From: an uncultured Actinomycetes bacterium
GTDB taxonomy: Bacteria > Actinomycetota > Thermoleophilia > RBG-16-64-13
NCBI GenBank assembly: GCA_963841735.1
Contig: CAWJDT010000004.1
Span: 192,001 to 256,000 of the forward strand
DNA length: 64,000 nucleotides
Reading direction: 5' to 3'
Of this stretch, positions 3,304 to 28,272 are shown in pieces. Position 1 is the first letter of the stretch, and every line of letters starts with the position of its first letter. Position numbers and translations under genes: made by a program. Below the pieces are notes generated by a model, which worked only from the letters and a program-made list of their open reading frames with translations, was not told the DNA's origin and did no database searches.

Positions 3304-4149
3304 ATGGGGGAAGAGGGGCGGGCAAACACTCAGAAGAGCTCCCTTGGGTCGGAGACGGCATTCGGCGAGCGTATCGAATCGGTGCCCGAAAGGGCCCTTC
3401 TCATCAGGATCAGGGACGGCGATACGGCTGCCCGCCAGGAGCTGATAACGCGTTACCTACCTTTGGTGAGAAGCATCGCTAGGCGCTTTGCGTCGCGGGG
3501 GCAGCCTGTGGAAGACCTTACTCAAGTGGGGTCCATCGGGCTTATCAAGGCGGTCGACCGCTTCGATCTTGAGAGGGGAGTGGAGTTGTCGACGTATGCC
3601 ACTCCGACCATAATGGGCGAGATCAAGCGCTACTTCCGGGACAAGGGCTGGGCCGTCAAAGTGCCCCGAGCGCTGCAGGACCTGAATGTTCGGCTCAATA
3701 AGCTCCTAGAGCAGCTCACGGTTGATCTGCAGAGATCGCCCAGTATCGCTGAACTCGCGACGGCGGCCGGGGTTAGCGAGGAGGAAGTGGTAGAGGCGAT
3801 GGAGAGCGGGCGCGCCTATAGTTCGGTCTCCATCTTCTCCGGGGGGGCAAATGAAGAAGATGACTCTTTGGAGATCCTGGATTGCCTTGGGAAGGAAGAG
3901 CCGGCATACGAGATATTCGAGCAGCGCCGGCTGCTTGCGCCGGCCATGGAGCGCTTGGACCCTCGAGAGCGTCTCATCCTTCACCTGCGCTTCTTTGAGG
4001 GCATGACGCAGACGCAGGTGGCCGCGCGCATAGGCATCTCCCAGATGCACGTGTCGCGGCTCATCCGCAAGTCTATCGAGAATCTCCGGCAGAACATATT
4101 GGAAACCGAGGTCCTGGTAGAGAGCGCCAGGGGGAGAGGTAAGGGCTAG
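3304..4149 (+). CDS. RNA polymerase sigma factor, SigB/SigF/SigG family
   Basis: EDLTQVGSIGLIKAVDRFD, YATPTIMGEIKRYFRDKGWAVKVPR, region 4 TQTQVAARIGISQMHVSRL. Confidence 0.95.
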   Translation: MGEEGRANTQKSSLGSETAFGERIESVPERALLIRIRDGDTAARQELITRYLPLVRSIARRFASRGQPVEDLTQVGSIGLIKAVDRFDLERGVELSTYATPTIMGEIKRYFRDKGWAVKVPRALQDLNVRLNKLLEQLTVDLQRSPSIAELATAAGVSEEEVVEAMESGRAYSSVSIFSGGANEEDDSLEILDCLGKEEPAYEIFEQRRLLAPAMERLDPRERLILHLRFFEGMTQTQVAARIGISQMHVSRLIRKSIENLRQNILETEVLVESARGRGKG

Positions 4150-6787: not shown

Positions 6788-7194
6788 GAGTGGACTTTGG
6801 GAGCAGACGTACGGGACTGGCGCTGTCGGACCCGCTTCGAGTGACGTGCCGTCCCCTTGAGGTACTTACCGAGCGCAATCAGGAAGTGCTTATCAAGGGT
6901 ATTCTGAGTAGGTCCAGAAATGAGGGAGTGACGTTGATTGTGGTGGGACTCCCGAGACCTTTGGGGGGAGGAACGAATAGTCAGATGACACAGGTCCTAG
7001 ACTTTGTCCGACATCTGCAGCTCGAAACGAGCATTCCTGTCGATACATGGGACGAGCGGTTTACTTCACGCCTTGCCGAACAGGGTCACTCGTCGTCGGA
7101 GGCGCGGGACGCCGTGGCTGCGTGCTATATGTTGCAGAATTATCTCGACGCGCACACCGACATCACGAGGCAAGATTCAAGTGAACATATATAG
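6775..7194 (+). CDS. ruvX: YqgF/RuvX family pre-16S rRNA nuclease
   Basis: LGVDFGSRRTGLALSD, VVGLP, DERFTS, DAVAA; conserved alaS-ruvX-mltG synteny. Confidence 0.93.
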   Translation: MRVLGVDFGSRRTGLALSDPLRVTCRPLEVLTERNQEVLIKGILSRSRNEGVTLIVVGLPRPLGGGTNSQMTQVLDFVRHLQLETSIPVDTWDERFTSRLAEQGHSSSEARDAVAACYMLQNYLDAHTDITRQDSSEHI

Positions 7195-8320
7195 GCACAG
7201 CCGGGGCCCCGGCCGAAAGCAGAATAGTGAGCGGGGTTCCAGCACGACATGGGGCCGACAAGACAGAGGGCGCGGTTGGCGTCGGTGGCTCTTGCGCGCT
7301 GTCGTAGTGATCGGGTTCCTGGGCTTTGTCTCGGGGGCGGCATATTTCGTTAATCGGGGGGTCGATTGGTATCAGGAGCGATCCACCACCACTACCGAAC
7401 ACGAGGCGACCAACACGACTAGATCGGTCACGATAGCCTCGGGCACCTCTGCGGCCGAAGTGGGACGCCTGCTCGAAGACGGGGGAGTTATCGAGTCGGC
7501 GGCAGAGTTCGTCGACGTAGTGAAGTCGCGGGGTACCGAGAGCGCGCTGCTGCCGGGTAAGTACGTGTTCAGCGAAGGGCTTGCCTTGATCGATGTGGTG
7601 GACATGCTTGAGACAGGTAAGGGAGCGTCCATCTTCAAGGTCACTATCCCCGAAGGCCTGGCGGTCTCCCAGGTCGCGGCCGCTCTGACGGATGACGGAC
7701 ACATAGCGGGCAACAGCTACCTCGAGGTAGCCACGAGCCCAGAGGATTTCGAACTGCCCCAAGTGGGCGGAGAGGTTCCAACCGGGCTGACGACTCTGGA
7801 GGGGCTGCTATACCCCAGCACCTATTGGCTCACGGAGGGCGATGGTGCTACACAGCTTGTCGGTGCGCAGTTGGCAGCATTTGCTCAGAAGACCGCGAAC
7901 CTGCCGTGGGCGAACGCGGAGGCTCTCGGCCTGACCCCCTACGAAATCGTCATCGTTGCGTCTCTGATCGAGAGGGAGGTCAGCGTACCCGAGGAAAGAC
8001 CCGTCGTGGCGGCTGTGATCTACAATCGCCTCAAGGAGGGCATGACTCTCGGCATCGACGCGACGGTCCGCTACGCACTGAACAAGTGGACAGGAGCACT
8101 TACCTCTGAAGATTTGAAGGTAGATTCAGCCTACAACACCCGGTTAGAGAAGGGCCTTCCGCCGACGCCCATCGCCAACCCACGGGTGGAGTCGCTGCAG
8201 GCCGCCCTCGAGCCTGATGACGTGGACTACCTCTACTACGTGCTAGAAGACACCCAGGGCAACCATTTCTTCACGGCCTCTTACGACGATTTTCTCCAGG
8301 CGAAGGAGAATCAGCCCTAG
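7181..8320 (+). CDS. mltG: Endolytic transglycosylase MltG (start uncertain)
   Basis: TM anchor, VTIPEG, LEGLLYPSTY, ASLIERE, LGIDAT, YNT...GLPPTPIANP. Confidence 0.95.
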   Translation: MNIYRHSRGPGRKQNSERGSSTTWGRQDRGRGWRRWLLRAVVVIGFLGFVSGAAYFVNRGVDWYQERSTTTTEHEATNTTRSVTIASGTSAAEVGRLLEDGGVIESAAEFVDVVKSRGTESALLPGKYVFSEGLALIDVVDMLETGKGASIFKVTIPEGLAVSQVAAALTDDGHIAGNSYLEVATSPEDFELPQVGGEVPTGLTTLEGLLYPSTYWLTEGDGATQLVGAQLAAFAQKTANLPWANAEALGLTPYEIVIVASLIEREVSVPEERPVVAAVIYNRLKEGMTLGIDATVRYALNKWTGALTSEDLKVDSAYNTRLEKGLPPTPIANPRVESLQAALEPDDVDYLYYVLEDTQGNHFFTASYDDFLQAKENQP

Positions 8321-8477
8321 CAACAGGCCTGGGCGCCGCCGCCGCGCTTCTGCACCAGTCAGCACTGAAGGCCAACGGCGAGCCAACGTCGAACTTAGGT
8401 ATCAGTTCGGGTGTCGCCGGTCTGAGGTAGGCTGATTGACTGACGGGGCACCCACGTGAGCTGAAGAGGAGGCACAG

Positions 8478-9336
8478 TTGGCGGCCGGAGGCACGAATAT
8501 CAGCGCGGCAACTAGACTGCTGTGTGTCCTGGGCCATCCCGTGCACCACTCACTGTCACCGAGGATCCACAACGCGGCCTTTCAGCACCAAGGACTGGAT
8601 CTGGCGTACTTGGCCTTCGACGTGCCGGCCGGAGAGCTTGCTGACGCGTTTTCGGCCCTCCGCCTACTGGGCGCGAGGGGTGCGAACCTGACCATTCCGC
8701 ATAAGGAGGCGGCGCTGGCCTTGGTCGACGAAGTTGACCCAGCGGCCGCCAGAATCGGCGCCATCAACACCGTGGTAAACCATAAAGGGCGGCTTACCGG
8801 GCACAATACCGACGTCAGTGGGTTTGCCGCTGCCCTGTGCACTATGCGACCCGGAGGAGCGCGGGGTCTTCGATGTGTGGTAGTCGGCGCAGGAGGGGCT
8901 GCTCGTGCGGTGGTGGCCGCATTGGTCGATGGGGGTGCCGAACACGTTTGGATCTGCAACCGCACTCACCAGCGCGCTGTGATGCTGTGCAGAGCTGCGG
9001 CGGCATGGGGAAACGTGCCCTGCGAGGTGATTACGGCAGAAGCGGTATCCGGAGTCATTTCAGGGGCCGACCTCATCGTCAACGCCACCTCTTTGGGGCT
9101 GGTGGCGTCGGTCAAGGACTTTGCTATTGATGTCGATAATCTGCAGTGTGGCCATATAGTGGTGGACCTCGTCTACGGGTGATGGATCCACCGCCTTGGT
9201 TCAAGCGGCACAAGCCAAGGGCGCACGCGCCATTGATGGCAAGGAGATGCTGGTTATGCAGGCTGCCGATTCATACCGGTTGTGGACGGGTCGAGAGCCT
9301 CCGGTCGATGTGATGCGCGCCGCGGCGGAGCGTTGA
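8478..9336 (+). pseudogene. aroE: Shikimate dehydrogenase with a +1 frameshift at the GGG run 9177-9179 (pseudogene or sequencing error)
   Basis: GHPVHHSLSP, NLTIPHK, GAINT, NTD, GAGGAARA, DLVY; removing one G restores GDGSTALVQAAQAKGARAIDGKEMLVMQAADSYRLWTG...ER* ending at 9336. Confidence 0.9.
9112..9139 (+). promoter_or_regulatory. Sigma28/WhiG-like promoter inside aroE, upstream of pilB
   Basis: TCAA-N16-GTCGATAA, same architecture as the motifs before pilC and pilM. Confidence 0.6.
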
Positions 9337-9355: not shown

Positions 9356-11083
9356 ATGCAGACCGCCAGAGAGGAGAATCTGCAGCGCAAGTTGTCGGGC
9401 AAACGCACCGGCGAAGTGCTCGTGGAGATGGGCATCCTCACGCAGGAACAGGTAGAGGAGGCTATCACCGAGCAGCGTGTTTCGCGGAAGCGCATCGGTG
9501 ACATCGCCCTTGAGAAGGGTTGGGTGACCAAGGGCATTCTCATGGAAGCTCTTGGACGCCGTCTGGGAGTGAAGCACCTCGACCTTGCCGGCACTCGTAT
9601 CGATCCGGTGACCGCCGACCTGATCTCCGAGCGAGACGCCCGTCGGTACGGCGCGATCCCGGTGAGCTTCGTTGATGATCATACCCTCTTGGTTGCGATG
9701 GCCGATCCATCCAATATCGTCGCCATCGACGACCTTAGGATCCTTACCGGCTTCGACATCGAACCCGCCATCGCCAGCGCCGAGGATATCCTCACCATGC
9801 TGGGCAACATGCGGGGATCTCAAGACCAGATAACAGAGAACTTGGAAGAGAAGATCGATGGGGGTGACGACGAAGCAACCCCTGTCGAACTGCGCGACAT
9901 CCGAGAGCAGGTGGACGCAGCCCCCGTGGTCAAACTGGTCAACGGGATTATGGCTCGGGCGGCAGATGAAGGCGCGTCGGACATCCACTTCGAGCCTCAA
10001 GCCAAAGACCTGTTGATTCGTTTCAGGCACGACGGTGTGCTTCACGAGATCATGTCGGTCCCCAAGAGGCTTCAGCCTGGCATCATCTCGCGTCTCAAGA
10101 TCATGGCCGACTTGGATATTGCCGAACGGCGGGTTCCGCAGGACGGTCGTATCGGCCTAGTGGTTGGTGGACGGCCCATCGATATGCGCGTCGCATCTTT
10201 GCCCACCGTCTACGGCGAGAAGATAGTCATCAGGCTTCTCGACCGGTCGAACGTCATGCTGCGTCTGGAGCAACTGGGATTCTCCGACGTGGCCTTAAAC
10301 AGGTACACGCGGTCATACAAGAAGCCGTACGGCGCCATCCTGGTCACGGGACCGACCGGCTCAGGTAAATCCACCACCCTTTACGGCACACTGAACATCC
10401 TCAACACTCCCGACAAGAACATCATCACGGTAGAGGATCCCGTTGAATACCGGCTGTCAGGTATCAATCAGGTGCAAATCAACATGAAGGCGGGCCTTAC
10501 GTTCGCTTCCGGACTGAGGTCGATCCTGCGCTGCGACCCCGACATCATCATGGTGGGGGAGATCCGTGATAGGGAGACGGCCCTTATCGCAATCGAGTCG
10601 GCCCTCACCGGCCACTTGGTGTTGTCAACACTACACACCAACAATGCTCCCGGGGCGCTCTCCCGCCTAACTGAGATGGGAGTGGAGCCGTTTCTCTCGG
10701 CCTCAGCCGTCGACTGTGTCATAGCCCAGCGTCTTGTAAGGAAACTTTGTGAGTACTGTCGCGAAGCGTACCCGGCGACCCGCGAGATGCTGGAACGGCT
10801 TGCCTTCGGCACTGAGGCGATCGAGAAGTGGAAGGACATCACACTCTATCGACCAGCGGGATGCGCCCACTGCAACAGCACCGGCTACAAGGGCCGACTG
10901 GGCATCTACGAGGTCATGGCTGTGAGCGAGGCTATTGAGCGGCTCATTGTCGAGCGCAAAAGCGCCGATGAGATCATGAGGGTGGCGATCGCCGAGGGAA
11001 TGGTGTCACTACGCCAAGATGGACTCGAAAGGGTTCTGCAAGGGGTCACAAGCATTGAGGAGATATCTCGCGTTATCGTCTAG
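9356..11083 (+). CDS. pilB: Type IV pilus assembly ATPase
   Basis: MshEN-like N-terminus (RTGEVLVEMGILT, RIGDIALEKGWVT), ASDIHFEP, GPTGSGKST, EDPVEY, DPDIIMVGEIRD, tetracysteine motif. Confidence 0.96.
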   Translation: MQTAREENLQRKLSGKRTGEVLVEMGILTQEQVEEAITEQRVSRKRIGDIALEKGWVTKGILMEALGRRLGVKHLDLAGTRIDPVTADLISERDARRYGAIPVSFVDDHTLLVAMADPSNIVAIDDLRILTGFDIEPAIASAEDILTMLGNMRGSQDQITENLEEKIDGGDDEATPVELRDIREQVDAAPVVKLVNGIMARAADEGASDIHFEPQAKDLLIRFRHDGVLHEIMSVPKRLQPGIISRLKIMADLDIAERRVPQDGRIGLVVGGRPIDMRVASLPTVYGEKIVIRLLDRSNVMLRLEQLGFSDVALNRYTRSYKKPYGAILVTGPTGSGKSTTLYGTLNILNTPDKNIITVEDPVEYRLSGINQVQINMKAGLTFASGLRSILRCDPDIIMVGEIRDRETALIAIESALTGHLVLSTLHTNNAPGALSRLTEMGVEPFLSASAVDCVIAQRLVRKLCEYCREAYPATREMLERLAFGTEAIEKWKDITLYRPAGCAHCNSTGYKGRLGIYEVMAVSEAIERLIVERKSADEIMRVAIAEGMVSLRQDGLERVLQGVTSIEEISRVIV

Positions 11084-11124
11084 TGGCGGTCGCGTGGGCA
11101 CAGCAAAGGCAAGGGACGGCGGCA

Positions 11125-12189
11125 ATGGATATCAGTGACATCCTGAGGGAAGTCGTGGACCGAGATGCATCGGATCTGCATCTTTCTGTAGGATTACCCC
11201 CGGTAGCGCGCATCGACGGCCAGCTGCAAGCCCTCGACTATCCGGTTCTGGAACCCAACACCACCCGGGAGCTCATCTACGGCATCCTCACCGGAGACCA
11301 GAGGCAGAAGCTCGAGACGGACTGGGAGGTTGATCTCGCCTACTCGCTCTTCGGCGTGGCGCGCTTCCGTGTCAATGCTTTCTTCCAGCGGGGTACTTTG
11401 AGCGCGGCGTTCCGGCTGGTGCCCATCGAGATACGACCCGTCGACTCACTCGGTCTGCCGAAGGTTATTCATTCTTTTTGCCACAAGCCTAGGGGGTTCA
11501 TCATCGTGACCGGCCCGACCGGTTCTGGGAAGACGACAACCTTGGCGGCCATCATAGACGAGATCAACCAGACTCGGTCGCATCACATAGTCACCATCGA
11601 GGACCCAATCGAGTTCCTTCATCATCACAAGCGCTGCGTAGTCAACCAGCGAGAGTTGGGCACTGACACCAAGTCATTCCCGGCGGCTCTGCGCGCTGCG
11701 CTCCGCCAGGACCCGGACGTGGTGCTGATTGGCGAGATGCGCGACCAAGAGACCATACAGATTGCCTTGACGGCTGCCGAGACAGGGCACCTGGTCTTTG
11801 CAACCCTGCACACCCAGGACTGCCCGCAGTCCATCGACCGCATAATCGACGTATTCCCGCCGCACCAACAGGAGCAGATCAGGGTTCAGGTAGCAGCCAC
11901 GCTTGAAGGTGTTGTGTCACAACAACTGCTGGCCAAGGCGGGGGGCAAAGGACGAGTAGCTGCCTGCGAAGTTTTAGTCAGCACCCCCGCAGTAAGAAAC
12001 CTCATCCGCGAAGGCAAGACTCACCAGCTGTACACGGTGATGCAGACAGGAAGTCAGCACGGCATGCAGACCATGAACGCTGCCCTTGCCGATCATGTGC
12101 GCCATGGCCGCATCACCAAGGAACTGGCCCTGAGACGCACCATGGTGCCCGACGAGCTCGAACGGCTGCTGCTTGTGGGCGCGGCCTAG
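11125..12189 (+). CDS. pilT: Type IV pilus retraction ATPase (alternative GTG start at 11083)
   Basis: ASDLHLS, GPTGSGKTT, EDPIEF, LRQDPDVVLIGEMRD, AVRNLIRE, GMQTM. Confidence 0.96.
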   Translation: MDISDILREVVDRDASDLHLSVGLPPVARIDGQLQALDYPVLEPNTTRELIYGILTGDQRQKLETDWEVDLAYSLFGVARFRVNAFFQRGTLSAAFRLVPIEIRPVDSLGLPKVIHSFCHKPRGFIIVTGPTGSGKTTTLAAIIDEINQTRSHHIVTIEDPIEFLHHHKRCVVNQRELGTDTKSFPAALRAALRQDPDVVLIGEMRDQETIQIALTAAETGHLVFATLHTQDCPQSIDRIIDVFPPHQQEQIRVQVAATLEGVVSQQLLAKAGGKGRVAACEVLVSTPAVRNLIREGKTHQLYTVMQTGSQHGMQTMNAALADHVRHGRITKELALRRTMVPDELERLLLVGAA

Positions 12190-16145: not shown

Positions 16146-16529
16146 CTACTCCTCCGCGGCAAGAAATTCGTTGTACTCATCTGCGGCGAGTAGTTCGTCC
16201 GCTTCGGCAGGCTCAGTGAGCCTCACCTTTATGAGCCAACCCTCACCGTAAGGGCTGTCGTTGATGAGCTCCGGAGCGTCCACGACCTCTTCGTTGACCT
16301 CGACGACCGAACCACTCAGGGGTGCATAGACGTCGGAGACGGCCTTCACTGACTCGACCTCGGCGTACGGCGTCCCAGCCAGAACCTCCGCGCCTACCTC
16401 CGGGAGTTCGATGAATACAATGTCACCGAGTGTCTCCTGGGCATAGTCGGTGAGACCGAATACCGCTGTCTCACCCTCGATGCGGGCCCAGTCGTGCTCC
16501 CTGTGGTATTTGAGGTTTTTTGGGTTCAC
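16146..16529 (-). CDS. gcvH: Glycine cleavage system H protein
   Basis: HDW, GLTDYAQETLGDIVF, VESVKAVSDVYAPLSG (lipoyl Lys), PELIN..PYGEGW. Confidence 0.97.
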   Translation of the reverse strand: MNPKNLKYHREHDWARIEGETAVFGLTDYAQETLGDIVFIELPEVGAEVLAGTPYAEVESVKAVSDVYAPLSGSVVEVNEEVVDAPELINDSPYGEGWLIKVRLTEPAEADELLAADEYNEFLAAEE

Positions 16530-16675
16530 ATGCGCTCCTTTCTCGCCATATCCGGCTGGCCGTCATGATATCACAGCGCTTTTTTGTGGCTAGGTGTCTT
16601 AAGGTGCGCGCACGGAGTCGGTGCCTTGTACCTTGTATACTGTCATGGCAACTAATGAGCCGAAGGAGGACCGCT

Positions 16676-17179
16676 GTGGCTCGACGCAGAGGACTCGTCA
16701 TAAGTGACGAACAGATGCAGATGATCGATGGGGTTCTCACCAAGTTACAGCACGTTACCGGCTCTAACTTCGTGGCGCTGATATCGACGAGTGGCCAGCC
16801 TATCACCATGGTGCCGCCAGACGCTGATTCGGACACGCTTTCGCTTGCCGCCTTGGCGGCGGGGTCGTTTGCCGCCACAAGGCAGCTCGCCCAAGTGCTT
16901 AAGGAGCGCGAGTTCACGTTGCTCTTCCATGAGGGCAAAGAATCCAACCTCCACGTCATGCAAGTGACCGAGCAAATCCTGATGCTCCTCACGTTCGGCC
17001 GCGAGACTCAGGTAGGCCGGGTGCGTCTATACACCTCCCGGGCCCTCGAGGTGCTCAAGCCTATTTTTGAACGTGCCGAAGATAACGAAGGGGACTCCAG
17101 GATGATGGACCCGGAATACTCTCTGGGAGTCGGGTCAGCGATAGACGATCTGTTTCCCGAAGAGGACAGCCCACAGTAG
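16676..17179 (+). CDS. mglB: Roadblock/LC7 protein, MglB-like GAP
   Basis: RBS AAGGAGG; [17 protein letters not shown]...EFTLLFHEGKESNLH...GRVRL; directly upstream of mglA. Confidence 0.88.
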   Translation: MARRRGLVISDEQMQMIDGVLTKLQHVTGSNFVALISTSGQPITMVPPDADSDTLSLAALAAGSFAATRQLAQVLKEREFTLLFHEGKESNLHVMQVTEQILMLLTFGRETQVGRVRLYTSRALEVLKPIFERAEDNEGDSRMMDPEYSLGVGSAIDDLFPEEDSPQ

Positions 17180-17193
17180 CAGGGGGCGCGCAA

Positions 17194-17778
17194 GTGGCAC
17201 TGATCAACTTAGCGGCACGAGAGATCAATTATAAGATCGTCTACTATGGCTGTGGCCTGTGCGGCAAGACCACGAACATTCAATACATACATCGCCGGGT
17301 CAACCCTGCGGCCCGGGGCCGTTTGGTCAGCATCGCCACCGAGGAAGAACGAACGCTGTATTTTGATTTTCTGCCCCTGTCGCTAGGCAGTGTCAAGGGG
17401 CTGCGCACCCGCTTTCATCTGTACACGGTTCCTGGGCAGTCGTTCTACAACGCTTCTCGAAAGCTGGTGCTCCAAGGAGTAGACGGGGTGGTTTTTGTCG
17501 CCGACAGTCAGATCTCTCGCTTGGACGAGAATGTCGACAGCTATCTCAACCTGTGGGACAACCTCATGTCTCTAGACGAGGAAGTATCCAATCTAGGCAT
17601 GGTTCTGCAGATGAACAAGCGGGATCTAGGTTCGATCTTCTCCGTGTCCGACCTTACCGAACTGCTCAACCACACCGGCTCACCGGTGCTGGAGGCCTGT
17701 GCGCTCACGGGGGTGGGTGTCTTCGAGACACTCAAGACGGTCTGCAAGCAGGTGATTGCAAAGAGTTCGCGTACCTGA
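17194..17778 (+). CDS. mglA: Small Ras-like GTPase MglA
   Basis: KIVYYGCGLCGKTTN, ERTLYFDFLP, LYTVPGQ, GVDGVVFVADS, NKRDL, GVFETLK. Confidence 0.95.
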   Translation: MALINLAAREINYKIVYYGCGLCGKTTNIQYIHRRVNPAARGRLVSIATEEERTLYFDFLPLSLGSVKGLRTRFHLYTVPGQSFYNASRKLVLQGVDGVVFVADSQISRLDENVDSYLNLWDNLMSLDEEVSNLGMVLQMNKRDLGSIFSVSDLTELLNHTGSPVLEACALTGVGVFETLKTVCKQVIAKSSRT

Positions 17779-20429: not shown

Positions 20430-20477
20430 AAGTCGGGACGGCCGGATTTGAACCGGCGACCTTCCGGCCCCCAGCCG
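20430..20477. repeat. att core, left copy (duplicated 3' half of tRNA-Pro)
   Basis: AAGTCGGGACGGCCGGATTTGAACCGGCGACCTTCCGGCCCCCAGCCG identical to 28196-28243. Confidence 0.97.
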
Positions 20478-20595
20478 CTTACAGGCCGATTCTGGCCATT
20501 TTAGCCTGTCGGAGGCTGTCTCCCAAAAGACGCGGTTTGCAGGGCTTTGCTGCCGTGAGCGCCGACAGGCTGAGACAGGCAGTAACACCTGTGCG

Positions 20596-20626
20596 GGACT
20601 TTTCGTGGAACATTCGTGGAACATGG
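20596..20626 (+). repeat. Probable integrase arm-type binding sites (tandem GTGGAACAT), left arm
   Basis: 29/31 identical to 28111-28141; GTGGAACATTCGTGGAACATGG is exact. Confidence 0.7.
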
Positions 20627-20759
20627 AGCCGCTCGCCTCGCTTGGCCACGTAGCCCGTGCCCGAACCCAGGGAAGCCCGATCTTGCGGGCTTGCTTTCTG
20701 GTATACCTCCGAGTATGCTTTGCAGTGTCACTTCCAGCATCACTAGAGGGGCGGCAGAC

Positions 20760-20996
20760 ATGACCGATCTTGAGAAGGTGCGCGAGAATCGACTCCGGCG
20801 CATGGCCGCTCGGCAGGGGCTCATGCTCCGCAAGTCGCGACGCCGCGATCCCTACGCGCTCGACTACGGCACGTATCAGCTCGTTGATATGTCCACCAAC
20901 ATCCTCATTCAATGGGAAGGCATCGCCTACCCCGGCTGGAGCCTTGACGAAGTCGAGGAGTGGCTAACCAGGGACCATGATGCGAGGAAAGCATGA
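20760..20996 (+). CDS. Small arginine-rich hypothetical protein of the element
   Basis: RBS GAGGGG; MTDLEKVRENRLRRMAARQGLMLRKSRRRDP...SLDEVEEWLT; ATGA-coupled to the next gene. Confidence 0.75.
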   Translation: MTDLEKVRENRLRRMAARQGLMLRKSRRRDPYALDYGTYQLVDMSTNILIQWEGIAYPGWSLDEVEEWLTRDHDARKA

Positions 20997-21367
20997 GCAC
21001 GACCACCAGCATTCTCAAGGCTGCTTTGGCGGCAACGGTTAGGTCGACCGCCGAGTGGCGAAAACTCAAGGCTGAGGAATACGCCGGAGACGAGCGCAAC
21101 GCGCAGTGTGCGGCCGGGCTCGAGGATCTCGCGGTGTGGATCGAGGCCCTCGACGATACGGACGCACGGCTCGTGCAGCTTGCGGCGCTCGATTGGGCAG
21201 ACGACTTCTTCTCAGCGGGCGAAGAGCCGTCCCGCTTGTTGGGTCGCTATCGTTTCGATAGGGAAGATGAGAGCCCCGATCAGTTCCTGGACAGGTTCGT
21301 CGAAGCTTGCATCCAAGAGGCGATGGTCAACGCGGATGAGCCGTTCGACGGCGATATCGCCCGGTAG
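20993..21367 (+). CDS. Acidic hypothetical protein of the element
   Basis: RBS GAGG, ATGA overlap, 124-aa helical protein-like composition. Confidence 0.7.
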   Translation: MSTTTSILKAALAATVRSTAEWRKLKAEEYAGDERNAQCAAGLEDLAVWIEALDDTDARLVQLAALDWADDFFSAGEEPSRLLGRYRFDREDESPDQFLDRFVEACIQEAMVNADEPFDGDIAR

Positions 21368-21417
21368 GCTTCACAGGATCAACGTAGGCGCAACAGACAG
21401 CGGCCGGAGTAGGAAGA

Positions 21418-21765
21418 CTACCCGGCCGCTTCGCTTTGCCCGTGCGCCGGCGTCGGAAGAAGACGGTCGAGAAAGGCGGTCGCACCGCGATACAGCCCCA
21501 GGATCACAGGGTAGAGCTTGGCCTCCGGCGTGCGTTTGGTGCCGGATTGGCTCGGCCCGTTGTTCCAATCGACCGTGAGGCTGTGCGCGGTCATGTGCCT
21601 CTGGAGATCGTCCAGGGTCACGCCCAGGAAGGCGGCTTGCCCCAAGAGCGAGTCGAGCCCACGCAACCGCTCCGGACCAATGTCGCGGTAAATGCGGCGA
21701 AGTCGGGCCTTCTCTCGCTTGATCCGGCGAGCTTTCTGCTGGGGCTCTAAGTCGGGCGAAGTCAT
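21418..21765 (-). CDS. terS: Terminase small subunit (P27-like, cos-phage type)
   Basis: RIKREKARLRRIY...AAFLGVTLDDLQ...WNNGPSQSGTKRTPE..LY...FLDRLLP resembles recalled TerS of Gram-positive siphophages; RBS GAGGTG; follows the capsid gene. Confidence 0.7.
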   Translation of the reverse strand: MTSPDLEPQQKARRIKREKARLRRIYRDIGPERLRGLDSLLGQAAFLGVTLDDLQRHMTAHSLTVDWNNGPSQSGTKRTPEAKLYPVILGLYRGATAFLDRLLPTPAHGQSEAAG

Positions 21766-22058
21766 CGCAAATCACCTCATCTTGAGGGCCGTTGGGGCCG
21801 CTTATTCTTGACCCCCCCTATGCCGGGTTTTTTCTGCCGCGCTGAAGTTATTCTCCACTTACCGGTCTCCAGCCATGCTTCACATTTTGCATGCACGGGG
21901 GGATCACCTCTGCCAAGTTGGTGTGCAGGCCTCCCGCCGCAGAGACGAGAGGCCTGCTCTGCTGCTCTCTTTCCCTGTATCCCGCGCGCATGAATCGAAC
22001 ACGCAGGAGGCCGGCAGGGCAGCATGGCGGGAAGGATGCCCGCGACCGTTGGCACCTA

Positions 22059-23462
22059 TCAGCTAACCGCCGACGTGGCCAGGTTCAAGATCCTGAAGGC
22101 TTCGGGAACCACTACGTCGGAACCGGTCCTGAACCAGAGGAAAGCCCCGCGCTGGCCAGTGGGCCGGCGGTTCTCTCCGAAGACGTGCGGGACGATCTCG
22201 ATGGTGCTGCCGATCCGGTCCGCGATGATGAAGTTGCTCCAATCCCCATAGCAGAGAATGAGGTTGTCTTCGGTCGCGCCGGTGTCAACGTCGTCCGTGT
22301 CCGCCATGTTGGAGCATTCATGGAGCGGCCGCCTCAGCAGCTTGCCGTCGGCCAGTTCGGGGAAGACCCTCGACCCATTGTCGGTCTCAAACTGCGCGAT
22401 GCTGTTGATCGTCGGGAGACCGGCGACCCACCGCGCGTTGGGCTGGAACCGAGCGGGAAGAGCGTTCTGCACCGCGTAGACATCCGGCGTCGTGAACGTC
22501 TCGAATGTTGCCGGAGACAACTCAGAGCCGGTGCCCGCAAGAGCGGTCACAAACCCGGTCGGCTGGCCGTCGCCGCTGCCGGTTGTGAAGGCCGCTGCCT
22601 GCAACTGGTCTGCCGCGTCGACGAGCAACTTGGCGAGCTCTTCAGCAAACCGCAAGCCGTCCATCCCGATCTCAAAACTGAAGGGGACGAACGCGTCTCC
22701 GAAGTGCACCGGAACTTCGGCCTCGGCAAGCGTGGGGCTCGCGTCGGCTGCCTCGCTTCCTTCGCTCTTCCATTCCGCACTACAGCCGGCGCTGGTCACG
22801 CCTTGCCAAGTGTTCGAAGTGGTCTGGACCACTCGGGCGATTTGGCGAAGCGGATTGTTGGAACCGTCGGAGGTCAGCAAGATCGCGGGATCCAAGAACA
22901 AAGGCAGCATTTCGCCACCGTAGCCGGCCCCGGTGCTGAGAGCCGCGCGAAAGTCGCGCTTGACGGCCTGGACCTGCTGGTATGCGGCACGCTCTTCGTC
23001 GGTCCACATCATGTGGCCCTTTGAAGGGTCGGCCATCATCTTGAAGAAGGCGCTGGCGTAGGCGTCGCTCCCGGTGGCCTGCGCCCACCTGGACGCCAGG
23101 TCGCGGGATGCGTCGTCGCCGGTCGTGACGAGCCTCTCGGCCACAGCCGCCGCGGGCGCCGGCAGCAGACCGCGCTCGTGAGCCGCGTTGATGATGCGGC
23201 GCGCCGGGTCGGTATCACGGGAGCCGAAGACCGGACTGTTGCTACCGCGGGCGTCCGGCTGGGGGAACGTGCGGGCGGTGGGCTGAGGCGGGGCCTTCAG
23301 CGCGTCGGGGTCGGCCCCAAGACGGATGGCGGTGTTCCTGCGCTTGCGTTCCTCCGTGAGTGCGTCCACCTCGGTCTCCAGAGCATCGAGGTCGGCGTCG
23401 GGCTTCTTCAGCTCGGCCTTGATCTCGCTGAGCCGGGCGTCAATCTGTGCGATACGTTTCAT
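22059..23462 (-). CDS. HK97-fold major capsid protein, phiRv1/phiRv2-like
   Basis: N-terminal coiled-coil delta domain; LDPAILLTSDGSNNPLRQIARVVQTTS, GSGDGQPTGFV, YGDWSNFIIADRIG, PHVFGENRRPTGQRG, AFRILN. Confidence 0.93.
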   Translation of the reverse strand: MKRIAQIDARLSEIKAELKKPDADLDALETEVDALTEERKRRNTAIRLGADPDALKAPPQPTARTFPQPDARGSNSPVFGSRDTDPARRIINAAHERGLLPAPAAAVAERLVTTGDDASRDLASRWAQATGSDAYASAFFKMMADPSKGHMMWTDEERAAYQQVQAVKRDFRAALSTGAGYGGEMLPLFLDPAILLTSDGSNNPLRQIARVVQTTSNTWQGVTSAGCSAEWKSEGSEAADASPTLAEAEVPVHFGDAFVPFSFEIGMDGLRFAEELAKLLVDAADQLQAAAFTTGSGDGQPTGFVTALAGTGSELSPATFETFTTPDVYAVQNALPARFQPNARWVAGLPTINSIAQFETDNGSRVFPELADGKLLRRPLHECSNMADTDDVDTGATEDNLILCYGDWSNFIIADRIGSTIEIVPHVFGENRRPTGQRGAFLWFRTGSDVVVPEAFRILNLATSAVS

Positions 23463-23471
23463 GACGAAAAC

Positions 23472-23805
23472 CGCCTTTCAGGCGTAGAAAGTCAGTGTTC
23501 TTGGGGGATCATCCGGTGCCGGACGATCAGTGTCGGCGCCTCTGCGGCCCCGACAGGACCTGGCCACCTCTGCGGCGGCAGGTGCCGAGTTGTAGGACAG
23601 GCATCTCTCCGACACCAGCACCACCCGGGCTCTCTCCGACCCCGGCCGTCGCCATGCCCTCTCGGGCAGCATGGCCCCCGCCCTTCGGCGGTCGTCCGGT
23701 GTGCCATGCCGGACTGTCGGAAGCTCTTCGCTTCCAGCGAATCACCCGACCGATAGCAGCATGGCATCTCTGCGACGCCAGCCCGTCCGGGGCCTCTGCG
23801 GCACC
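23472..23805 (-). ncRNA. Putative structured leader or ncRNA: hairpin array with repeated C-GNAGA-G pentaloops
   Basis: About 12 adjacent stems; G-U wobbles resolve only on the minus strand; begins just after TATAAT and ends at the capsid RBS. Confidence 0.6.
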
Positions 23806-23808
23806 TAG

Positions 23809-23814
23809 ATTATA
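23809..23814 (-). promoter_or_regulatory. -10 element of a putative capsid-operon promoter
   Basis: Perfect TATAAT on the minus strand in GC-rich DNA; -35 is poor. Confidence 0.6.
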
Positions 23815-23849
23815 CCGCTTCCAGCGGACAGGGAATACGCTCTGAGCGT

Positions 23850-24113
23850 TCATGCGACCACCACACCCACGTCTTCGTTGCAGCCGCACTTCCGGCATAC
23901 CCACCACTCGGCCGGCAGTTTGGAAGCCGGGTTGCCCCACAGGATCGCTCCCAGGGTCGCGCCGCACTCCGGGCAGGTGAACGTTACGATCTTGCCGCCG
24001 CCGGTCTCTTGCACAGCGAAGGTGAACATGGCGCCGTGCGGTGGTACTTGGCCGCACCAGGGCTCTTGCTGCTGTGCGGGTGCACCGGTGAGGGCTTCGT
24101 GATGTAGGGTCAT
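23850..24113 (-). CDS. Small zinc-finger-like hypothetical protein
   Basis: CPECG...CRKCGC; RBS AAGGCGGTG. Confidence 0.55.
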   Translation of the reverse strand: MTLHHEALTGAPAQQQEPWCGQVPPHGAMFTFAVQETGGGKIVTFTCPECGATLGAILWGNPASKLPAEWWVCRKCGCNEDVGVVVA

Positions 24114-24137
24114 AGGATCACCGCCTTCTTGCTGAAC

Positions 24138-24332
24138 TCATCGCCATAGACCCGGCCGGATGAACACTGGCCTTTGCTCCCTGGCTTCCCGGGCCCGCGC
24201 TGCCTGATCCCTGGCGGCCGTCTGCGTAGTGCAGACCCCGAAGGCCACGGACCGGCCGCTGTCCCATAGGCGCCAGGTCCACAGAGGCGCGTCGGGCTTT
24301 GATCGCTCGGATTCTCGGATCTCTACCCTCAC
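24138..24332 (-). CDS. Small hypothetical protein (WxWRL motif)
   Basis: Strong RBS AAGGAGG before GTG 24332; 64 aa. Confidence 0.55.
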   Translation of the reverse strand: MRVEIRESERSKPDAPLWTWRLWDSGRSVAFGVCTTQTAARDQAARAREAREQRPVFIRPGLWR

Positions 24333-24355
24333 GCGCGGACCCTCCTTTTGGAGTT

Positions 24356-24456
24356 TCTTACTCTTACCTCCTATAGAGAAAGAGGAACGGTAAGATTCCG
24401 TTCCCTCTCTCTTTCTCTTACCGGTAAGATTCATCGTTCTTACCACGGTAAGATTC
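24356..24456. repeat. Iteron cluster, putative replication origin of the element
   Basis: CGGTAAGATTC x3 (24388, 24422, 24446) plus inverted TCTTAC x4 (24356, 24362, 24416, 24438); AT-enriched; at the 3' end of rep. Confidence 0.7.
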
Positions 24457-25707
24457 ATCCGCACGGCTCCACCTGCCCCGGCCCACGTTCTGAATGAGCC
24501 CCTTGTCCTTCAACTGAGTGAGGGTCTTACTCACTGTGCCAGGAGTGGTCCCGATGGCTTCGGCAAGCTCTGACGGTCCACAGGGGCCATTCTCAAGCTC
24601 GGTGAGGATCATGTCCCGGATGGCGCCGGCCTCCGTCGATACATCGTTGACGGCCGCCTCCTCTACCACCAGGGCGTCACGGTCGAAGATCATCCGCAGA
24701 CCCACGGGCTCCACGTCGCCCATGTTGGTCTTGCGCGGGAAGAGCCCGACGCGGTACACGCCCGGCCGCTCGCGCTCGGAGCGGATCTCCCAGGTGATCC
24801 GTGCGAGGTTCTCCCAGTAGATGCTCCCAATCGGCAGCCGGTGGTGGTTCTCTTCGCGCCGGTCTGCCTTCGTGGTGTGGGTCTGGATATCGACGGCGGC
24901 GCCGGTGCTCGCTGTGACCTTGCGCAGACTGCCGAAGAACTGGATGGCAAGCTCAGAGCTGGCCACGTCTCCCCCACACGCGAGGCCCGCACTGTCGATA
25001 ACGACGAACTTGATCTCATGCTTAGCGATAACCTTGGCGATCTCGGAGGCCTCGTCTGCCATCGGGCCCGTGCACCTGCGGTAGAGCGGGAAGCGGATAT
25101 CACGGGCGATATAGGTCTTCTGGAGACCAGTCGCCAGCATCGTGCAGCGCCGCGCCGCCTCTGCCTCTGTCACTTCCCAATCGAGAATGAGCGTGTTCGC
25201 CTGTTTGGTGTCCCTGGCCTGGAAAGGCAGCCCGTTCTCTATGAGGAGGGCCTTGTAGATGGAAACGAAGCTCTTGAACTGGCCACCCGGAGCGAAGCTG
25301 AGGACCGGGAGCCCGTCTAGGATCACGTTCCCCAGCATGTACTCGACATCGACACTAGTCACCGGCTGAAGGCGCCGCGTAGGCGATCCCTGCTCCTCGT
25401 GCTCCAGGATAAGCGTGCAACTGGTCTCGATTACCCGGTCCCAGTTGACGCTGTCGCGCGGGAGTCGCTCCTCTAGCGTCTGCGACAATCGGCGCCGGGT
25501 CTGGCCGGCCGCCAGATTCATGGCCTCGTGGTGAACTTTCTCGGGATCTCGGCCGGGAAGAGCGACGAAGATCTTGACGGTACCTTGCACCCGGCCGTCA
25601 GAATGGGTCCGCAGACGCCCGGCCTCAAACTCGACCATGGCATCCGGGAACGACCATCGGACGATGTACTCCCCTGGCGCCGTGGTGATGGTGGGCGTCA
25701 CATCCAT
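24418..25707 (-). CDS. Rep-like AAA ATPase/helicase (AAA_25/RepA-like) with C-terminal winged HTH
   Basis: Variant Walker A FAPGGQFKS, LILDWE, Walker B VVIDS, HTTK, GSIYWEN.AR; C-terminal PSELAEAIG..PGTVSKTLTQLKDKGLI....RGRW. Confidence 0.75.
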   Translation of the reverse strand: MDVTPTITTAPGEYIVRWSFPDAMVEFEAGRLRTHSDGRVQGTVKIFVALPGRDPEKVHHEAMNLAAGQTRRRLSQTLEERLPRDSVNWDRVIETSCTLILEHEEQGSPTRRLQPVTSVDVEYMLGNVILDGLPVLSFAPGGQFKSFVSIYKALLIENGLPFQARDTKQANTLILDWEVTEAEAARRCTMLATGLQKTYIARDIRFPLYRRCTGPMADEASEIAKVIAKHEIKFVVIDSAGLACGGDVASSELAIQFFGSLRKVTASTGAAVDIQTHTTKADRREENHHRLPIGSIYWENLARITWEIRSERERPGVYRVGLFPRKTNMGDVEPVGLRMIFDRDALVVEEAAVNDVSTEAGAIRDMILTELENGPCGPSELAEAIGTTPGTVSKTLTQLKDKGLIQNVGRGRWSRADESYRGKNDESYR

Positions 25708-26009
25708 GGCTTCGCCCTGGGTCTCTTCCTTGGCGGGCGGGCCATCTCCGAGCCGAGTAACTCACTCCGCAGTCTTTCGCAGATCCCGATGCGCTCGTCT
25801 GCCCATGCGGAGACGCTCAGCCTGCGCATTCCTCGCCACATGATGTTTCGCGGGTAGAGCTCGGCGATGCGAGCGGCCTGATACTCGGCGCTCAGCAGCT
25901 CGCACAGCGACATGTCCCGCAAGTCCAGGTTGTAGACCTGCAGGAACTCCTCATAGCTATTCGCCGCGTTGGGCGGGCGAAGCTGAAGGCGGTATGCCCT
26001 CGCGCTCAT
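25698..26009 (-). CDS. Hypothetical protein of the element
   Basis: 103-aa ORF tightly packed between the xis-like and rep genes. Confidence 0.6.
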   Translation of the reverse strand: MSARAYRLQLRPPNAANSYEEFLQVYNLDLRDMSLCELLSAEYQAARIAELYPRNIMWRGMRRLSVSAWADERIGICERLRSELLGSEMARPPRKRPRAKPWM

Positions 26010-26013
26010 GCGT

Positions 26014-26241
26014 CTAACCCCTGCCCTCGACCCGCTCTATGATCTTTGCCCGCGGGACGAAGACATTACGGCCTACAGTCAGCACCGGTACTCCCATGAG
26101 TGTGCCGTGGGCCTTGATCTCCCCATATAGAGCGTTCAGCCCTGGGCCGTGCGGCAGAGCCTCCCAGAACTCTCGCGGTTTCGAGAGCGGGTTTGGGTCC
26201 ATCTTGAACCGCTCCCAGGATGTCAGTGTGCGCGATGGCAT
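26014..26241 (-). CDS. Excisionase/AlpA-like DNA-binding protein
   Basis: First gene divergent from the repressor; LY..IK..GT..VPVLTVGRNVFVPRAKI pattern; RBS GGGAGGG. Confidence 0.65.
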   Translation of the reverse strand: MPSRTLTSWERFKMDPNPLSKPREFWEALPHGPGLNALYGEIKAHGTLMGVPVLTVGRNVFVPRAKIIERVEGRG

Positions 26242-26281
26242 TGAAACCCTCCCAGGTTCAGTGAGCCTTGTGACGTATCAA

Positions 26282-26339
26282 ATTGTAGGCCAACGGATGT
26301 TGACAGTGCAAGCGGTTCTATGATACTAATGCAGTATCA
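26282..26339. promoter_or_regulatory. Divergent overlapping promoters and operator (genetic switch)
   Basis: Leftward TTGCAC-N18-TACAAT (26311-26282); rightward TTGACA at 26300 with GATACT at 26322; palindrome TGATACT-N5-AGTATCA at 26321-26339. Confidence 0.65.
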
Positions 26340-26359
26340 ACGACGGCCGGAGGAGAGAC

Positions 26360-26911
26360 ATGACGGATACAGAGAGGGCAAAACCGCGGGAGTTGGTCGG
26401 TCGCAACCTTCGGAGGATTCGCCAGGATCGCGGGCTTTCTCAACGTCGGCTGGTCGAGCGAATGAGGGGGCTCCGGTTTTCGTGGCACCAGACAACCGTT
26501 CAGGGAGTTGAGACGGGCACGAGACCCGTCTCGATCGATGAACTAGTAGCTCTCGCCATCTGCCTGGACACTGACATTGCATCGTTGCTCGATCCCGTTG
26601 GCGCCGGTCTCCCGAGCCTTCCGATGGAGCAGGGCACACTTGCGGAGGCGGGGACTGTAGACGTCGGTCTTCCGTGGGGCTTGTGGGGCCGTTTCTTTCG
26701 CAACCTCATTCCCGTGTCGCAGGCGCAAGGTAGCAGCCCGCGGTTCGTCCAGACCATTCCAGACTGGCGCGATGGGGAGCCGGTGGGCGGTCTACAGCAG
26801 GAATTCGCCATCCCTGCCGATGAGGACGCGCTCCACACCAAGGTGAAAGAACTCGAAACCCTGGTCGAACAATTGAAGGCGGCGTTGCCGGCACAAGGGA
26901 GGAAGTCGTGA
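26360..26911 (+). CDS. XRE-family HTH repressor
   Basis: VGRNLRRIRQDRGLSQRRL...WHQTTVQGVETGTRPVSIDELVALA; RBS GGAGGAG. Confidence 0.9.
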   Translation: MTDTERAKPRELVGRNLRRIRQDRGLSQRRLVERMRGLRFSWHQTTVQGVETGTRPVSIDELVALAICLDTDIASLLDPVGAGLPSLPMEQGTLAEAGTVDVGLPWGLWGRFFRNLIPVSQAQGSSPRFVQTIPDWRDGEPVGGLQQEFAIPADEDALHTKVKELETLVEQLKAALPAQGRKS

Positions 26912-28107
26912 GAGGCTCCGTTCGTCGTTGGCGCAATGGTTGGCAGTGGCGCGTGCGGACGCCGGAAGGCCGGTGGATCTCCAAGTCCGGTTATCGCCTT
27001 GAGCGCGAGGCTCAGGACGCGCTCACCAAGGAACTAGCGAAGATGGGCGAAGGCCGGTTCGTGGAGCCCGACCGGATCACGGTCGGGGCGTACCTGGAAG
27101 ATGTGTGGCTCCCGGCCGTGAAAAGCTCTGTCGGGCCTAGTCAGTACACGAGCTATCAGACCATTCTAGAGCGGCATATCAAGAAGCACATAGGCGACGT
27201 GAAACTGCAGAAGCTCACGGAGCCCCACGTCATCCGCATGTACCGCGAACTCGAAAGGACAGGCCATCGCTACTCTACCGACGATGCCCCTCGCGGTCTG
27301 GCTCCAAAGTCCGTGCGTCACGTTCACGCCATGTTGCACCGGGCTTTGAATGACGCCGTAGAGTGGCGCTACGTGCCCCGCAACGTTGCCGAGAGCAAGA
27401 AGACCAAGCCGCCCCGGCCCAAACGTCAAGCCGACATGAAGGTCTGGACTGCGGAAGAGCTGCAGCGCTTCCTTGCCGCGGTGCAATCGGACCGGCTGTT
27501 CCCGTTCTGGCGCTTCCTCGCACTTACCGGCGTTCGCCGTGGCGAGGGTCTCGCGCTCCAATGGTCCGACGTGGATCTTCGCGCCGGCGTCGCGTCGATC
27601 GCTCGGGCTCGCACCATTCACGGCACGTCGGCGCCGAAGACGGAACGTAGTCGCCGCTCCCTTGACCTAGACCCGCAGACCGTCGCCGTGCTCAAGTCGT
27701 GGCGCAAGCGGCAGCTAGAGGAACGGCTCCGCTGGGGCGAGCTTTGGAGTGATACCGGCCTTGTGTTCACCCGCGAGAACGGCAACGGCTACCACCCGGA
27801 CGGGATCACCGGGATCTTTGAACGGCTGCAGCGTCAGCACAACGACGCGAAGAAGAAGGAAGCCGAAGAGCGGAAGAAGGCCGGCGACGCCACAGCGCAA
27901 CCGGAGGGCCTTCTCCCCCGAATCCGGCTGCATGACCTTCGCCACACTCACGCGACGCTGCTACTTGCGAGCGGCGTCAATGCCAAGATCGTCTCAGAGC
28001 GTCTCGGCCATGCCTCCGTGGCGTTCACCTTGACCGTGTACGCGCACGTTTTGCCCGGCCAACAGAAGGAAGCGATCGGGCGCCTGGCGGCCCTGGTCGA
28101 TGGCTAG
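26908..28107 (+). CDS. int: Tyrosine integrase
   Basis: N-terminal arm-binding domain; TGVRRGE, PKT, HDLRHT, ERLGH, VYAH catalytic set intact; adjacent to att/tRNA. Confidence 0.97.
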   Translation: MRGSVRRWRNGWQWRVRTPEGRWISKSGYRLEREAQDALTKELAKMGEGRFVEPDRITVGAYLEDVWLPAVKSSVGPSQYTSYQTILERHIKKHIGDVKLQKLTEPHVIRMYRELERTGHRYSTDDAPRGLAPKSVRHVHAMLHRALNDAVEWRYVPRNVAESKKTKPPRPKRQADMKVWTAEELQRFLAAVQSDRLFPFWRFLALTGVRRGEGLALQWSDVDLRAGVASIARARTIHGTSAPKTERSRRSLDLDPQTVAVLKSWRKRQLEERLRWGELWSDTGLVFTRENGNGYHPDGITGIFERLQRQHNDAKKKEAEERKKAGDATAQPEGLLPRIRLHDLRHTHATLLLASGVNAKIVSERLGHASVAFTLTVYAHVLPGQQKEAIGRLAALVDG

Positions 28108-28110
28108 TCC

Positions 28111-28141
28111 GGAGTTTTGGTGGAACATTCGTGGAACATGG
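28111..28141 (+). repeat. Probable integrase arm-type binding sites, right arm
   Basis: Direct repeat of 20596-20626. Confidence 0.7.
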
Positions 28142-28164
28142 CCGGCCGCCAAGCCTTCAGGGCA

Positions 28165-28193
28165 AGAAAAAAGCCCCGCGTTTGCAGGGCTTC
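28165..28193 (-). terminator. Rho-independent terminator for tRNA-Pro, supplied by the element
   Basis: Minus strand GAAGCCCTGC-AAAC-GCGGGGCTT followed by a T run, immediately after the tRNA 3' end. Confidence 0.8.
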
Positions 28194-28195
28194 TG

Positions 28196-28243
28196 AAGTC
28201 GGGACGGCCGGATTTGAACCGGCGACCTTCCGGCCCCCAGCCG
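28196..28243. repeat. att core, right copy (within tRNA-Pro)
   Basis: Identical to 20430-20477. Confidence 0.97.
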
Positions 28244-28272
28244 GATGCGCTACCAAACTACGCCACGTCCCG
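28199..28272 (-). tRNA. tRNA-Pro (anticodon GGG), CCA not encoded
   Basis: CGGGACG acceptor stem, D loop AGTTTGGTA, TCCGG-CTGGGGG-CCGGA anticodon arm, GCCGG-TTCAAAT-CCGGC T arm. Confidence 0.97.

Follow-up and report, generated by a model that had tools for sequence, protein, structure and literature searches.

In a 64,000-nt stretch of DNA from an uncultured Actinomycetes bacterium (contig CAWJDT010000004.1, positions 192,001 to 256,000; "the window" denotes this full 64-kb stretch), we analysed a 7,766-nt island integrated at a tRNA-Pro gene. Judged from sequence, its major capsid protein is chimeric: a core typical of chromosomal islands without a portal gene carries an N-terminal leader of phage type, and the phages with this leader also share the small terminase subunit (TerS) and the cos layout of the island. 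The element is probably a phage satellite whose helper, a member of this cos-phage family, would package it. Labels beginning with L, G and P denote loci, genomes and proteins of our comparison set. The features on which the argument turns are the following.

22059..23462, minus strand: HK97-fold major capsid protein, 467 residues, with a satellite-clade core (PF05065, E 5e-37)
23247..23462, minus strand: phage-type N-terminal leader, a helical hairpin that forms part of the predicted delta/scaffold domain
21812..21902, minus strand: cos-like site C6-N29-GACCG-N44-G7, with a predicted cut/overhang region at about 21855-21868
21418..21765, minus strand: small terminase subunit of the phrog_1066 family (distant Terminase_4), 115 residues

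A phage-type leader on an island capsid core

The best solved relative of the capsid is the head protein of phage Mycofy1 (44% identity), and in the predicted structure a helical hairpin is joined through a disordered linker to a helical middle part, followed by an HK97 fold closest to that of Mycofy1. The leader has other relatives. The phage L181/L227, one of those of 63% GC with the closest TerS homologs (see below), carries genes for TerS, the large terminase subunit (TerL), portal, a ClpP-type protease and capsid, as well as neck and tail genes. The first 70 residues of the L181 capsid are 49% identical to those of the window's capsid, and the rest has no match; the leader of the L228 capsid is closer still, with 45/77 identical residues (up to 58%). 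Over residues 1-72, the leader scored 173 against L228, 151 against L181 and 126 against the nearest sister island, with medians of 37-38 over 113 capsids of the island clade and 77 phage capsids with related cores. For the core, the scores were 48-60 against L181 and L228 vs 1463 against the sister island, and BLASTP gave no match between the window's core and those of the candidate helpers. The DNA similarity to the phage (70% over 215 nt) begins at the start codon and stops where the leader ends. The leader was likely acquired by recombination from a phage of the candidate helper family. The preliminary description of this DNA had proposed a mosaic packaging module; the mosaicism extends into the capsid gene itself, and a single phage family, not unrelated sources, is indicated by leader, cos and TerS alike.

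A search with the leader only retrieved nothing but itself from the protein database, nothing from viral contigs, and two weak records (E 0.2) from cultured phages, one of which, nd12, is also a TerS match. In 5 of 54 capsids, compared with a small local phage set, the leader was better matched in a phage than in another island. A second strong case was seen in a Gordonia metagenome-assembled genome, where the leader of the L030 capsid (9728-11146) scored 196 against the phage capsid L088 973-2421 and 111 against the best island. In phage locus L227, a block of glycosyltransferase- and methyltransferase-like genes, recognised by eye, directly follows the capsid gene (5587-9040).

The N-terminal delta domain of HK97-type heads serves as an internal scaffold, which the phage protease removes (PMC5052747, PMC8569155; here and below, papers cited by PMC number or DOI are represented by the part of their text that was available). 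Since the island has neither a protease nor a portal gene, it must use those of a helper, and a leader of helper type would be a plausible handle for both.

The cos-like site and TerS

The cos-like site lies between the capsid gene and terS, just upstream of the latter. In phage loci, C6-N29/31-GACCG was present upstream of TerS in 18 of 20 cases, mostly with a G-run next, and the annotated 14-nt cos overhang of phage B13 contains GACCG; the position of the window site is equivalent. The layout appeared in none of 100 shuffles, and in the genome the short form of the motif has seven copies and the full form one. We then compared leader and cos in 51 non-redundant islands with a leader and downstream DNA, counting motifs at most 700 nt from the capsid stop. 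The motif was found in all three islands with the phage-type leader, which are kin, and in none of the 48 without it. One of the three, L254, was fetched after the motif had been fixed.

The exact cos core of the window had no match in viral DNA. A DNA-only scan with a relaxed form of the islands' core gave six viral loci, namely two with a phrog_1066-type TerS (one of them also with the leader), three low-GC phages and one likely chance match. Locus L330, found by the DNA motif alone, has a GC content of 63% and genes for a phrog_1066-type TerS, TerL, portal and protease. Its capsid leader is 48% identical to that of the window over 84 residues, and its cos core agrees at 17/19 nt, 10 of which were set by the query pattern.

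The family phrog_1066 is unnamed, and we call the window gene TerS from its context and family. TerL lies directly downstream of the TerS homolog in 23/23 viral loci, many of them close Bacillus-type kin, and the homolog in phage B13 is annotated as TerS, at the genome start. These results bear out the terS gene of the preliminary description. The profile PF05119 (Terminase_4) matches 34/107 family members, the window protein not being among them. The structure model (pLDDT 92) has a helix-helix-hairpin-helix arrangement; compared with solved structures it gave generic helical matches only and no specific solved TerS, and a profile comparison with other TerS clusters was negative. The protein had been described as a Bacillota-type TerS. 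Its matches among cultured phages are indeed Bacillota phages (26-35% identity), but the closest phage homologs found are on uncultured contigs (41-42%) of 63% GC, the same as the host, so that a Bacillota source is not required and such an origin is not shown.

Island relatives of the capsid core

A genome scan, with one genome per species, gave 67 loci with a window-type capsid. Together with a second copy of L007 and the window they make 69 genome rows, which were compared with 80 viral loci. The profiles for portal, TerL and protease were built from the viral loci, and very divergent portals could escape detection by them: portal was matched in 0/69 genome rows and 69/80 viral loci, TerL in 2/69 and 58/80, and protease in 16/69 and 76/80. 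The two TerL matches in genome rows lie 7.5-8 kb away from a distant or broken capsid. An integrase was present near the capsid in 45/54 loci with enough flank, and where flanking repeats could be detected (25 loci), the element sizes were 7.2-10.6 kb. Eleven of 45 fully visible relatives have their own prohead protease beside the capsid; the window has none.

In a FastTree phylogeny of the last 370 capsid residues, from which broken or short capsids were excluded, 61 sequences grouped in a single clade with a support of 0.915, separate from 41 phage capsids. The clade comprises 52 genome loci, the window, seven unplaced proteins and one portal-less viral contig. It includes Mycobacterium islands (for example L019, L047, L049, L050, L058 and L066) whose capsids are 45-57% identical to that of the window, and the capsid frames of some clade members are broken. 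Locus L007 shows the gene order of the window at a tRNA-Met gene, with a different integrase (34%) and a capsid of 68% identity. Near the capsid, 8/60 of the loci L007-L068 have TerS-type best matches (PHROG families 1066, 1496, 1459 and 83); others carry HNH, WhiB-like and GntR-like genes, and most have no recognisable TerS in the scanned range. A first metagenome scan was empty; among the 74 metagenome loci, many of them on short contigs, the 25 highest-scoring ones contain neither portal nor TerL.

By its sequence, the capsid core belongs to a clade of chromosomal islands, and the element is not a deletion remnant. The preliminary description had named relatives with portal or TerL as the sign of such a remnant, and portal was found in none of the 69 genome rows. 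Its assignment of the element to satellites similar to phage-inducible chromosomal islands (PICIs), with a capsid and TerS of their own and distinct from both capsid-forming PICIs (cf-PICIs) and decayed prophages, is supported.

Prediction of the helper family

As leader, TerS and cos layout all match one phage family, we predict the helper family from these three features. When compared with 401 genomes of the class, the L181 capsid matched only the leaders of two islands. The L181 TerL matched 2/61 genomes of the family at 27-34% identity, and the prophages there (L251, L252) are of other types. In the island's own genome there was no long CRISPR-like match to the candidate phages.

Several observations weigh against this reading. 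Pfam and local profiles detected neither TerL nor portal nor another capsid in the own genome, which is 89.7% complete, so that the helper prophage for which the preliminary description had suggested a search was not found there. Among 301 genomes of the class, phrog_1066 was found in only two islands, and TerL, capsid and DNA of the L181 type show no tie to the host family. The island TerS is only 35-42% identical to those of the candidate phages, which makes the pairing of TerS with TerL imperfect on paper. Moreover, P0008, which has a different leader, and P0122, a TerS of 71% identity, are each on a 9,460-bp JGI contig, probably the same one; a window-type TerS can therefore likely accompany another leader. 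Conversely, L254 has the leader and cos without a phrog_1066-type TerS. The leaders are coiled-coil and prone to inflated scores; a shuffle z of about 25 for the leader match argues against such inflation as the whole signal. As for cos, the gap ranges of the full pattern were chosen with the window in view, and the kinship of the three leader-positive islands means that the contrast of 3/3 with 0/48 does not amount to 51 independent tests. A phage-only cos profile, mostly of AT-rich sites, missed the window site, which was absent from the 12 matches listed; the same profile ranked the L007 site first among island loci (E 0.04).

Proposed mechanism and alternatives

An element with integrase, repressor, replicase, capsid and terS and without portal, TerL, protease and tail is most likely a satellite packaged by a helper. 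Infection by the helper would lift repression, and the island would excise and replicate from its iteron origin. Its capsid protein would build a small head of its own; that the head is small is suggested by the narrow range of element sizes. The phage-type leader would recruit the portal and the maturation protease of the helper and then be cut off, while the island TerS would bind near the island cos and recruit the helper TerL, with cleavage at the shared cos core. Neck, tail and lysis functions of the helper would complete the particle. Capture of a leader would thereby direct the conserved shell of a satellite to a new helper.

The main rival, which we regard as rather unlikely, is that the capsid protein acts as a size switch of the Ccm type. 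It could not build a head alone, and the leader would allow it to form a mixed small shell with the helper capsid and so block the helper, while packaging through cos and TerS would be unchanged. The model for this is Ccm of SaPIbov5, an HK97-fold homolog with a cleaved delta domain and, over the modelled domain, 19% identity to the capsid of the helper; it forms T=4 shells of mixed composition and is no substitute for the helper's capsid protein; contacts between delta domains were proposed to drive assembly (PMC8569155, PMC5052747), which would explain mimicry of the leader. However, the window's core is a full conserved capsid with 44% identity to the Mycofy1 head protein and has no BLASTP match to the cores of the candidate helpers, and the 11/45 relatives with a prohead protease beside the capsid resemble a self-sufficient head operon. 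It is less probable still that the element is a genuine satellite with an incidental leader match, where leaders drift or recombine freely, every delta domain would serve and the helper is set by cos alone or by cos and TerS. Leaders do differ between close cores (P0003 and P0004, core score 1515, leader score 34), the same TerS type probably occurs with another leader (P0008/P0122), and on the capsid tree this leader type is interleaved with other types. Yet leader and cos types coincide in the island comparison, and again in L330, found through its DNA motif, and in an island without a protease something must recruit one.

The remaining alternative, a prophage whose decay removed portal, terminase and tail, or a relic that is now immobile, is very improbable. 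The missing helper in the genome and the broken capsid frames of some clade members would fit it, but all frames of the window element are open and its att sites, like its arm sites, are intact. L007 repeats its gene order at another tRNA with another integrase, the order capsid-cos-terS is the reverse of that in phages, and portal is absent from 69/69 genome rows. A portal-less autonomous virus (an idea in PMC13669383) was set aside, as TerS and the cos layout need a motor.

Element boundaries and insertion site

The ends of the element are defined by the following features.

20430..20477, no strand: att core copy, the duplicated 3' portion of tRNA-Pro (exact 48-nt repeat)
28196..28272, minus strand: att core copy 28196-28243 inside the intact tRNA-Pro(GGG) gene 28198-28272
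20596..20626, no strand: tandem GTGGAACA repeat, likely an integrase arm-type site, with a 94% copy at 28111-28141
28111..28141, no strand: second arm-type repeat, which pairs with 20596-20626

The 48-nt direct repeat is exact, allows no extension, and has two copies in the 2.82-Mb genome, spaced by 7,766 nt. It corresponds to the 3' portion of tRNA-Pro(GGG), in agreement with the 48-bp att repeats and the 7766-bp circle of the preliminary description. The arm-type repeats sit just inside both ends; their 22-mer has only two copies in the genome, and they are kept in a sister element (L221) and in a remnant (L161). The GC content of the element (62.9%, vs 63.1% for the genome) gives no signal.

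Congeners show the empty insertion site, for which a check had been suggested. Ten loci of the same genus contain the flanking manC-like gene, and in seven of them plsY, tRNA-Pro and this gene are contiguous over a short stretch. The other three are a 2.3-kb stretch without an integrase match, a contig edge and, in G006, the sister element. This element (L221 17406-20000 and L205 1-370) occupies the same tRNA-Pro site in another congener; its integrase is 71%, its repressor 42% and its first leftward gene 61% identical to those of the window, and its middle part is missing through a contig break. In G008 (L161, about 3127-3320), a remnant of the integrase-side end with an arm-type repeat lies beside an otherwise empty tRNA-Pro gene. 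Just outside the element, at window positions 16520-17778, is a pair of Roadblock-type and small-GTPase genes, which we take to resemble MglB/MglA.

Gene content, switch and replication module

The other features of the element are listed in the order of its genes, from the integrase end.

26908..28107, plus strand: tyrosine integrase, 399 residues, uninterrupted (PF00589, PHROG)
26360..26911, plus strand: helix-turn-helix (HTH) repressor of XRE type (HTH_31, E 1e-8; repressor PHROGs)
26242..26359, no strand: divergent switch region with a sigma-70-like site at 26300-26327 (plus strand)
26014..26241, minus strand: 75-residue first gene of the leftward operon, an excisionase by position only (61% in L221, 55/73 in L254)
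25698..26009, minus strand: 103-residue open reading frame (ORF) accompanying the rep gene (49% in L007, 39% in L226; similar ORF in L232)
24418..25707, minus strand: replication protein with an AAA_25 helicase-like domain and a C-terminal winged helix (weak primase/helicase PHROGs)
24371..24460, no strand: predicted replication origin, formed by three dyad-bearing AATCTTACCG iterons and overlapping the rep stop
24138..24332, minus strand: small conserved ORF, likely start 24332 (62% in L007; similar ORFs in L253 and L254)
23850..24113, minus strand: small zinc-ribbon protein, whose start may be 24029 (weak Zn-finger matches; 60% in L007)
20993..21367, plus strand: 124-residue accessory ORF, by coding score (no Pfam/PHROG family; best Atlas match 0.80, a lead only)
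20760..20996, plus strand: 78-residue accessory ORF, by coding score (no family, no homolog among the fetched loci)

The integrase gene and the adjoining repressor gene face a divergent operon, in which two small ORFs precede the AAA_25/winged-helix replicase gene that ends in the iterons. The operon continues with two further small ORFs, the HK97 capsid gene and the phrog_1066 gene, and two convergent orphan ORFs follow. Integrase (as intact), repressor, replicase and capsid had been described before, and PF00589, HTH_31/HTH_3, AAA_25 with a winged helix and PF05065 were found accordingly. Families of portal, TerL, protease, HNH, tail and lysis proteins were recognised neither among the 16 ORFs scanned with Pfam and PHROG nor in a six-frame profile search of the window, which agrees with the initial reading.

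The repressor matches HTH_31/HTH_3 and not the AlpA, MerR or Stl profiles. The sigma-70-like site in the switch is a consensus match alone (2 found vs 1.3 expected). The gene previously labelled xis-like has no Pfam or PHROG match and was negative in a profile test; position and conservation are what remains of that label. No primase domain was recognised in the replication protein. Iterons of the AATCTTACCG type are kept in L007 and L254, and different iterons occupy the same place in L226 and L232.

Two other islands carry related replication genes. One is at tRNA-Thr in the same genome (L232 12081-18342; G000:C4, about 422000-428400). Its AAA replicase is of the same type, again with the small ORF upstream, and its iterons are its own. 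It has no capsid but encodes an HK97-type protease fusion, and could in principle provide a protease in trans. The other, a same-genus island at tRNA-Phe (L226 7277-12408, G005:C104), encodes a replicase of 73% identity, with different iterons; a 160-residue HTH protein takes the late position, a capsid is absent, and repeated SLH-domain/nuclease genes flank the island. As far as the sequences tell, the replication module is common to islands with different late modules.

ARAGORN called a tRNA-Gly at 21980-22073, which we rejected because Rfam has no match at this place and the call overlaps the stop of the capsid gene. A 23-nt segment just past the capsid stop is conserved between the window (22010-22035) and L007 (11423-11447); it falls in the hairpin region that was miscalled as this tRNA.

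Comparison with known satellites

The PICI core of SatelliteFinder is a five-part gene set, under which phiRv1/2 are already classed (PMC10085698). By gene content, the island has all five core parts in the usual order, without portal, connector, tail or holin, and its size is near the PICI median of 9.5 kb. It differs in its Thermoleophilia-type host, which is outside the taxa named in the text of that paper available to us, in its phage-type leader, and in having cos and its own TerS together. The preliminary description was thus right about the class, a satellite with a capsid, but scored the element as more unusual than it is, since its gene set is the published PICI core. Like cf-PICIs (PMC10085698) it has its own HK97 capsid and TerS, but it lacks TerL, portal, protease, adaptor and connector.

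phiRv1/2 and the candidate Mycobacterium PICIs are likewise small portal-less islands with integrase, replicase, capsid and small terminase (PMC12268328, PMC10654092), and mycobacterial islands with protease and capsid share the capsid clade of the window; phiRv1/2 themselves were compared by their published description. phiRv1 combines a serine integrase with a primase and a prohead protease; the island has a tyrosine integrase and an AAA_25 replicase and encodes no protease. For phiRv1, the available text of PMC12268328 reports terminase, protease and capsid, but particles are not shown there, and induction of the mycobacterial candidates is stated as undetermined in that of PMC10654092.

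SaPIbov5 (PMC8569155, PMC5052747) is packaged by cos, encodes one HK97-fold capsid homolog with a delta domain and lacks its own protease, as does the island, where cos is putative. However, SaPIbov5 uses the helper TerS, whereas the island has its own, and the cleavage sites of Ccm and the helper capsid are little alike according to the authors, whereas the window leader is 49-58% identical to phage leaders. In the SaPI proteins CpmB and Rcm (PMC12409344), a satellite part also mirrors the helper scaffold and changes with the helper. These are described as free-standing mimics acting on the helper capsid; in the window the scaffold-like part is fused to the island's own capsid core. The EPIPs of Mycolicibacterium aichiense (PMC12822802) are small satellites with a capsid-like and/or TerS gene, as in the window, but carry genes for a serine integrase, adaptor, stopper and tape measure protein. 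PICI-like tycheposons (10.1101/2020.12.28.424599) are also small and have a capsid-like and/or TerS gene, either capsid or TerS, with their own integrase lineage.

The full-text literature searched, the coverage of which excluded subscription papers and the supplements of PMC10085698 and PMC10654092, yielded no description of a satellite whose capsid had captured a phage leader.

Implications

Without the leader and cos result, the element would be an ordinary new PICI. With it, the unnamed family phrog_1066 gains a function, as TerS, and its phages gain a cos signature. That a shell protein with no other likeness to these phages bears a phage-type leader suggests how satellites are likely to switch helpers, and exchange of the leader would be a concrete mechanism to make a satellite shell compatible with the portal and protease of an unrelated phage. 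We tentatively extend this to a phylum-wide lineage of portal-less satellites, which may keep its capsid core and switch helper by capturing the first 70 capsid codons and cos, sometimes with TerS, of a new phage, the leader serving as an adapter for the helper's portal and protease. Actinomycetota commonly harbour islands with a capsid gene and without a portal gene, and in the literature examined their induction and packaging are unproven and no helpers are named. Leader, TerS and cos pointing to one phage family may provide a sequence rule for finding such helpers. If this is true, leader and cos would reveal the helper that any such island uses, and this would extend to the long-orphaned mycobacterial islands.

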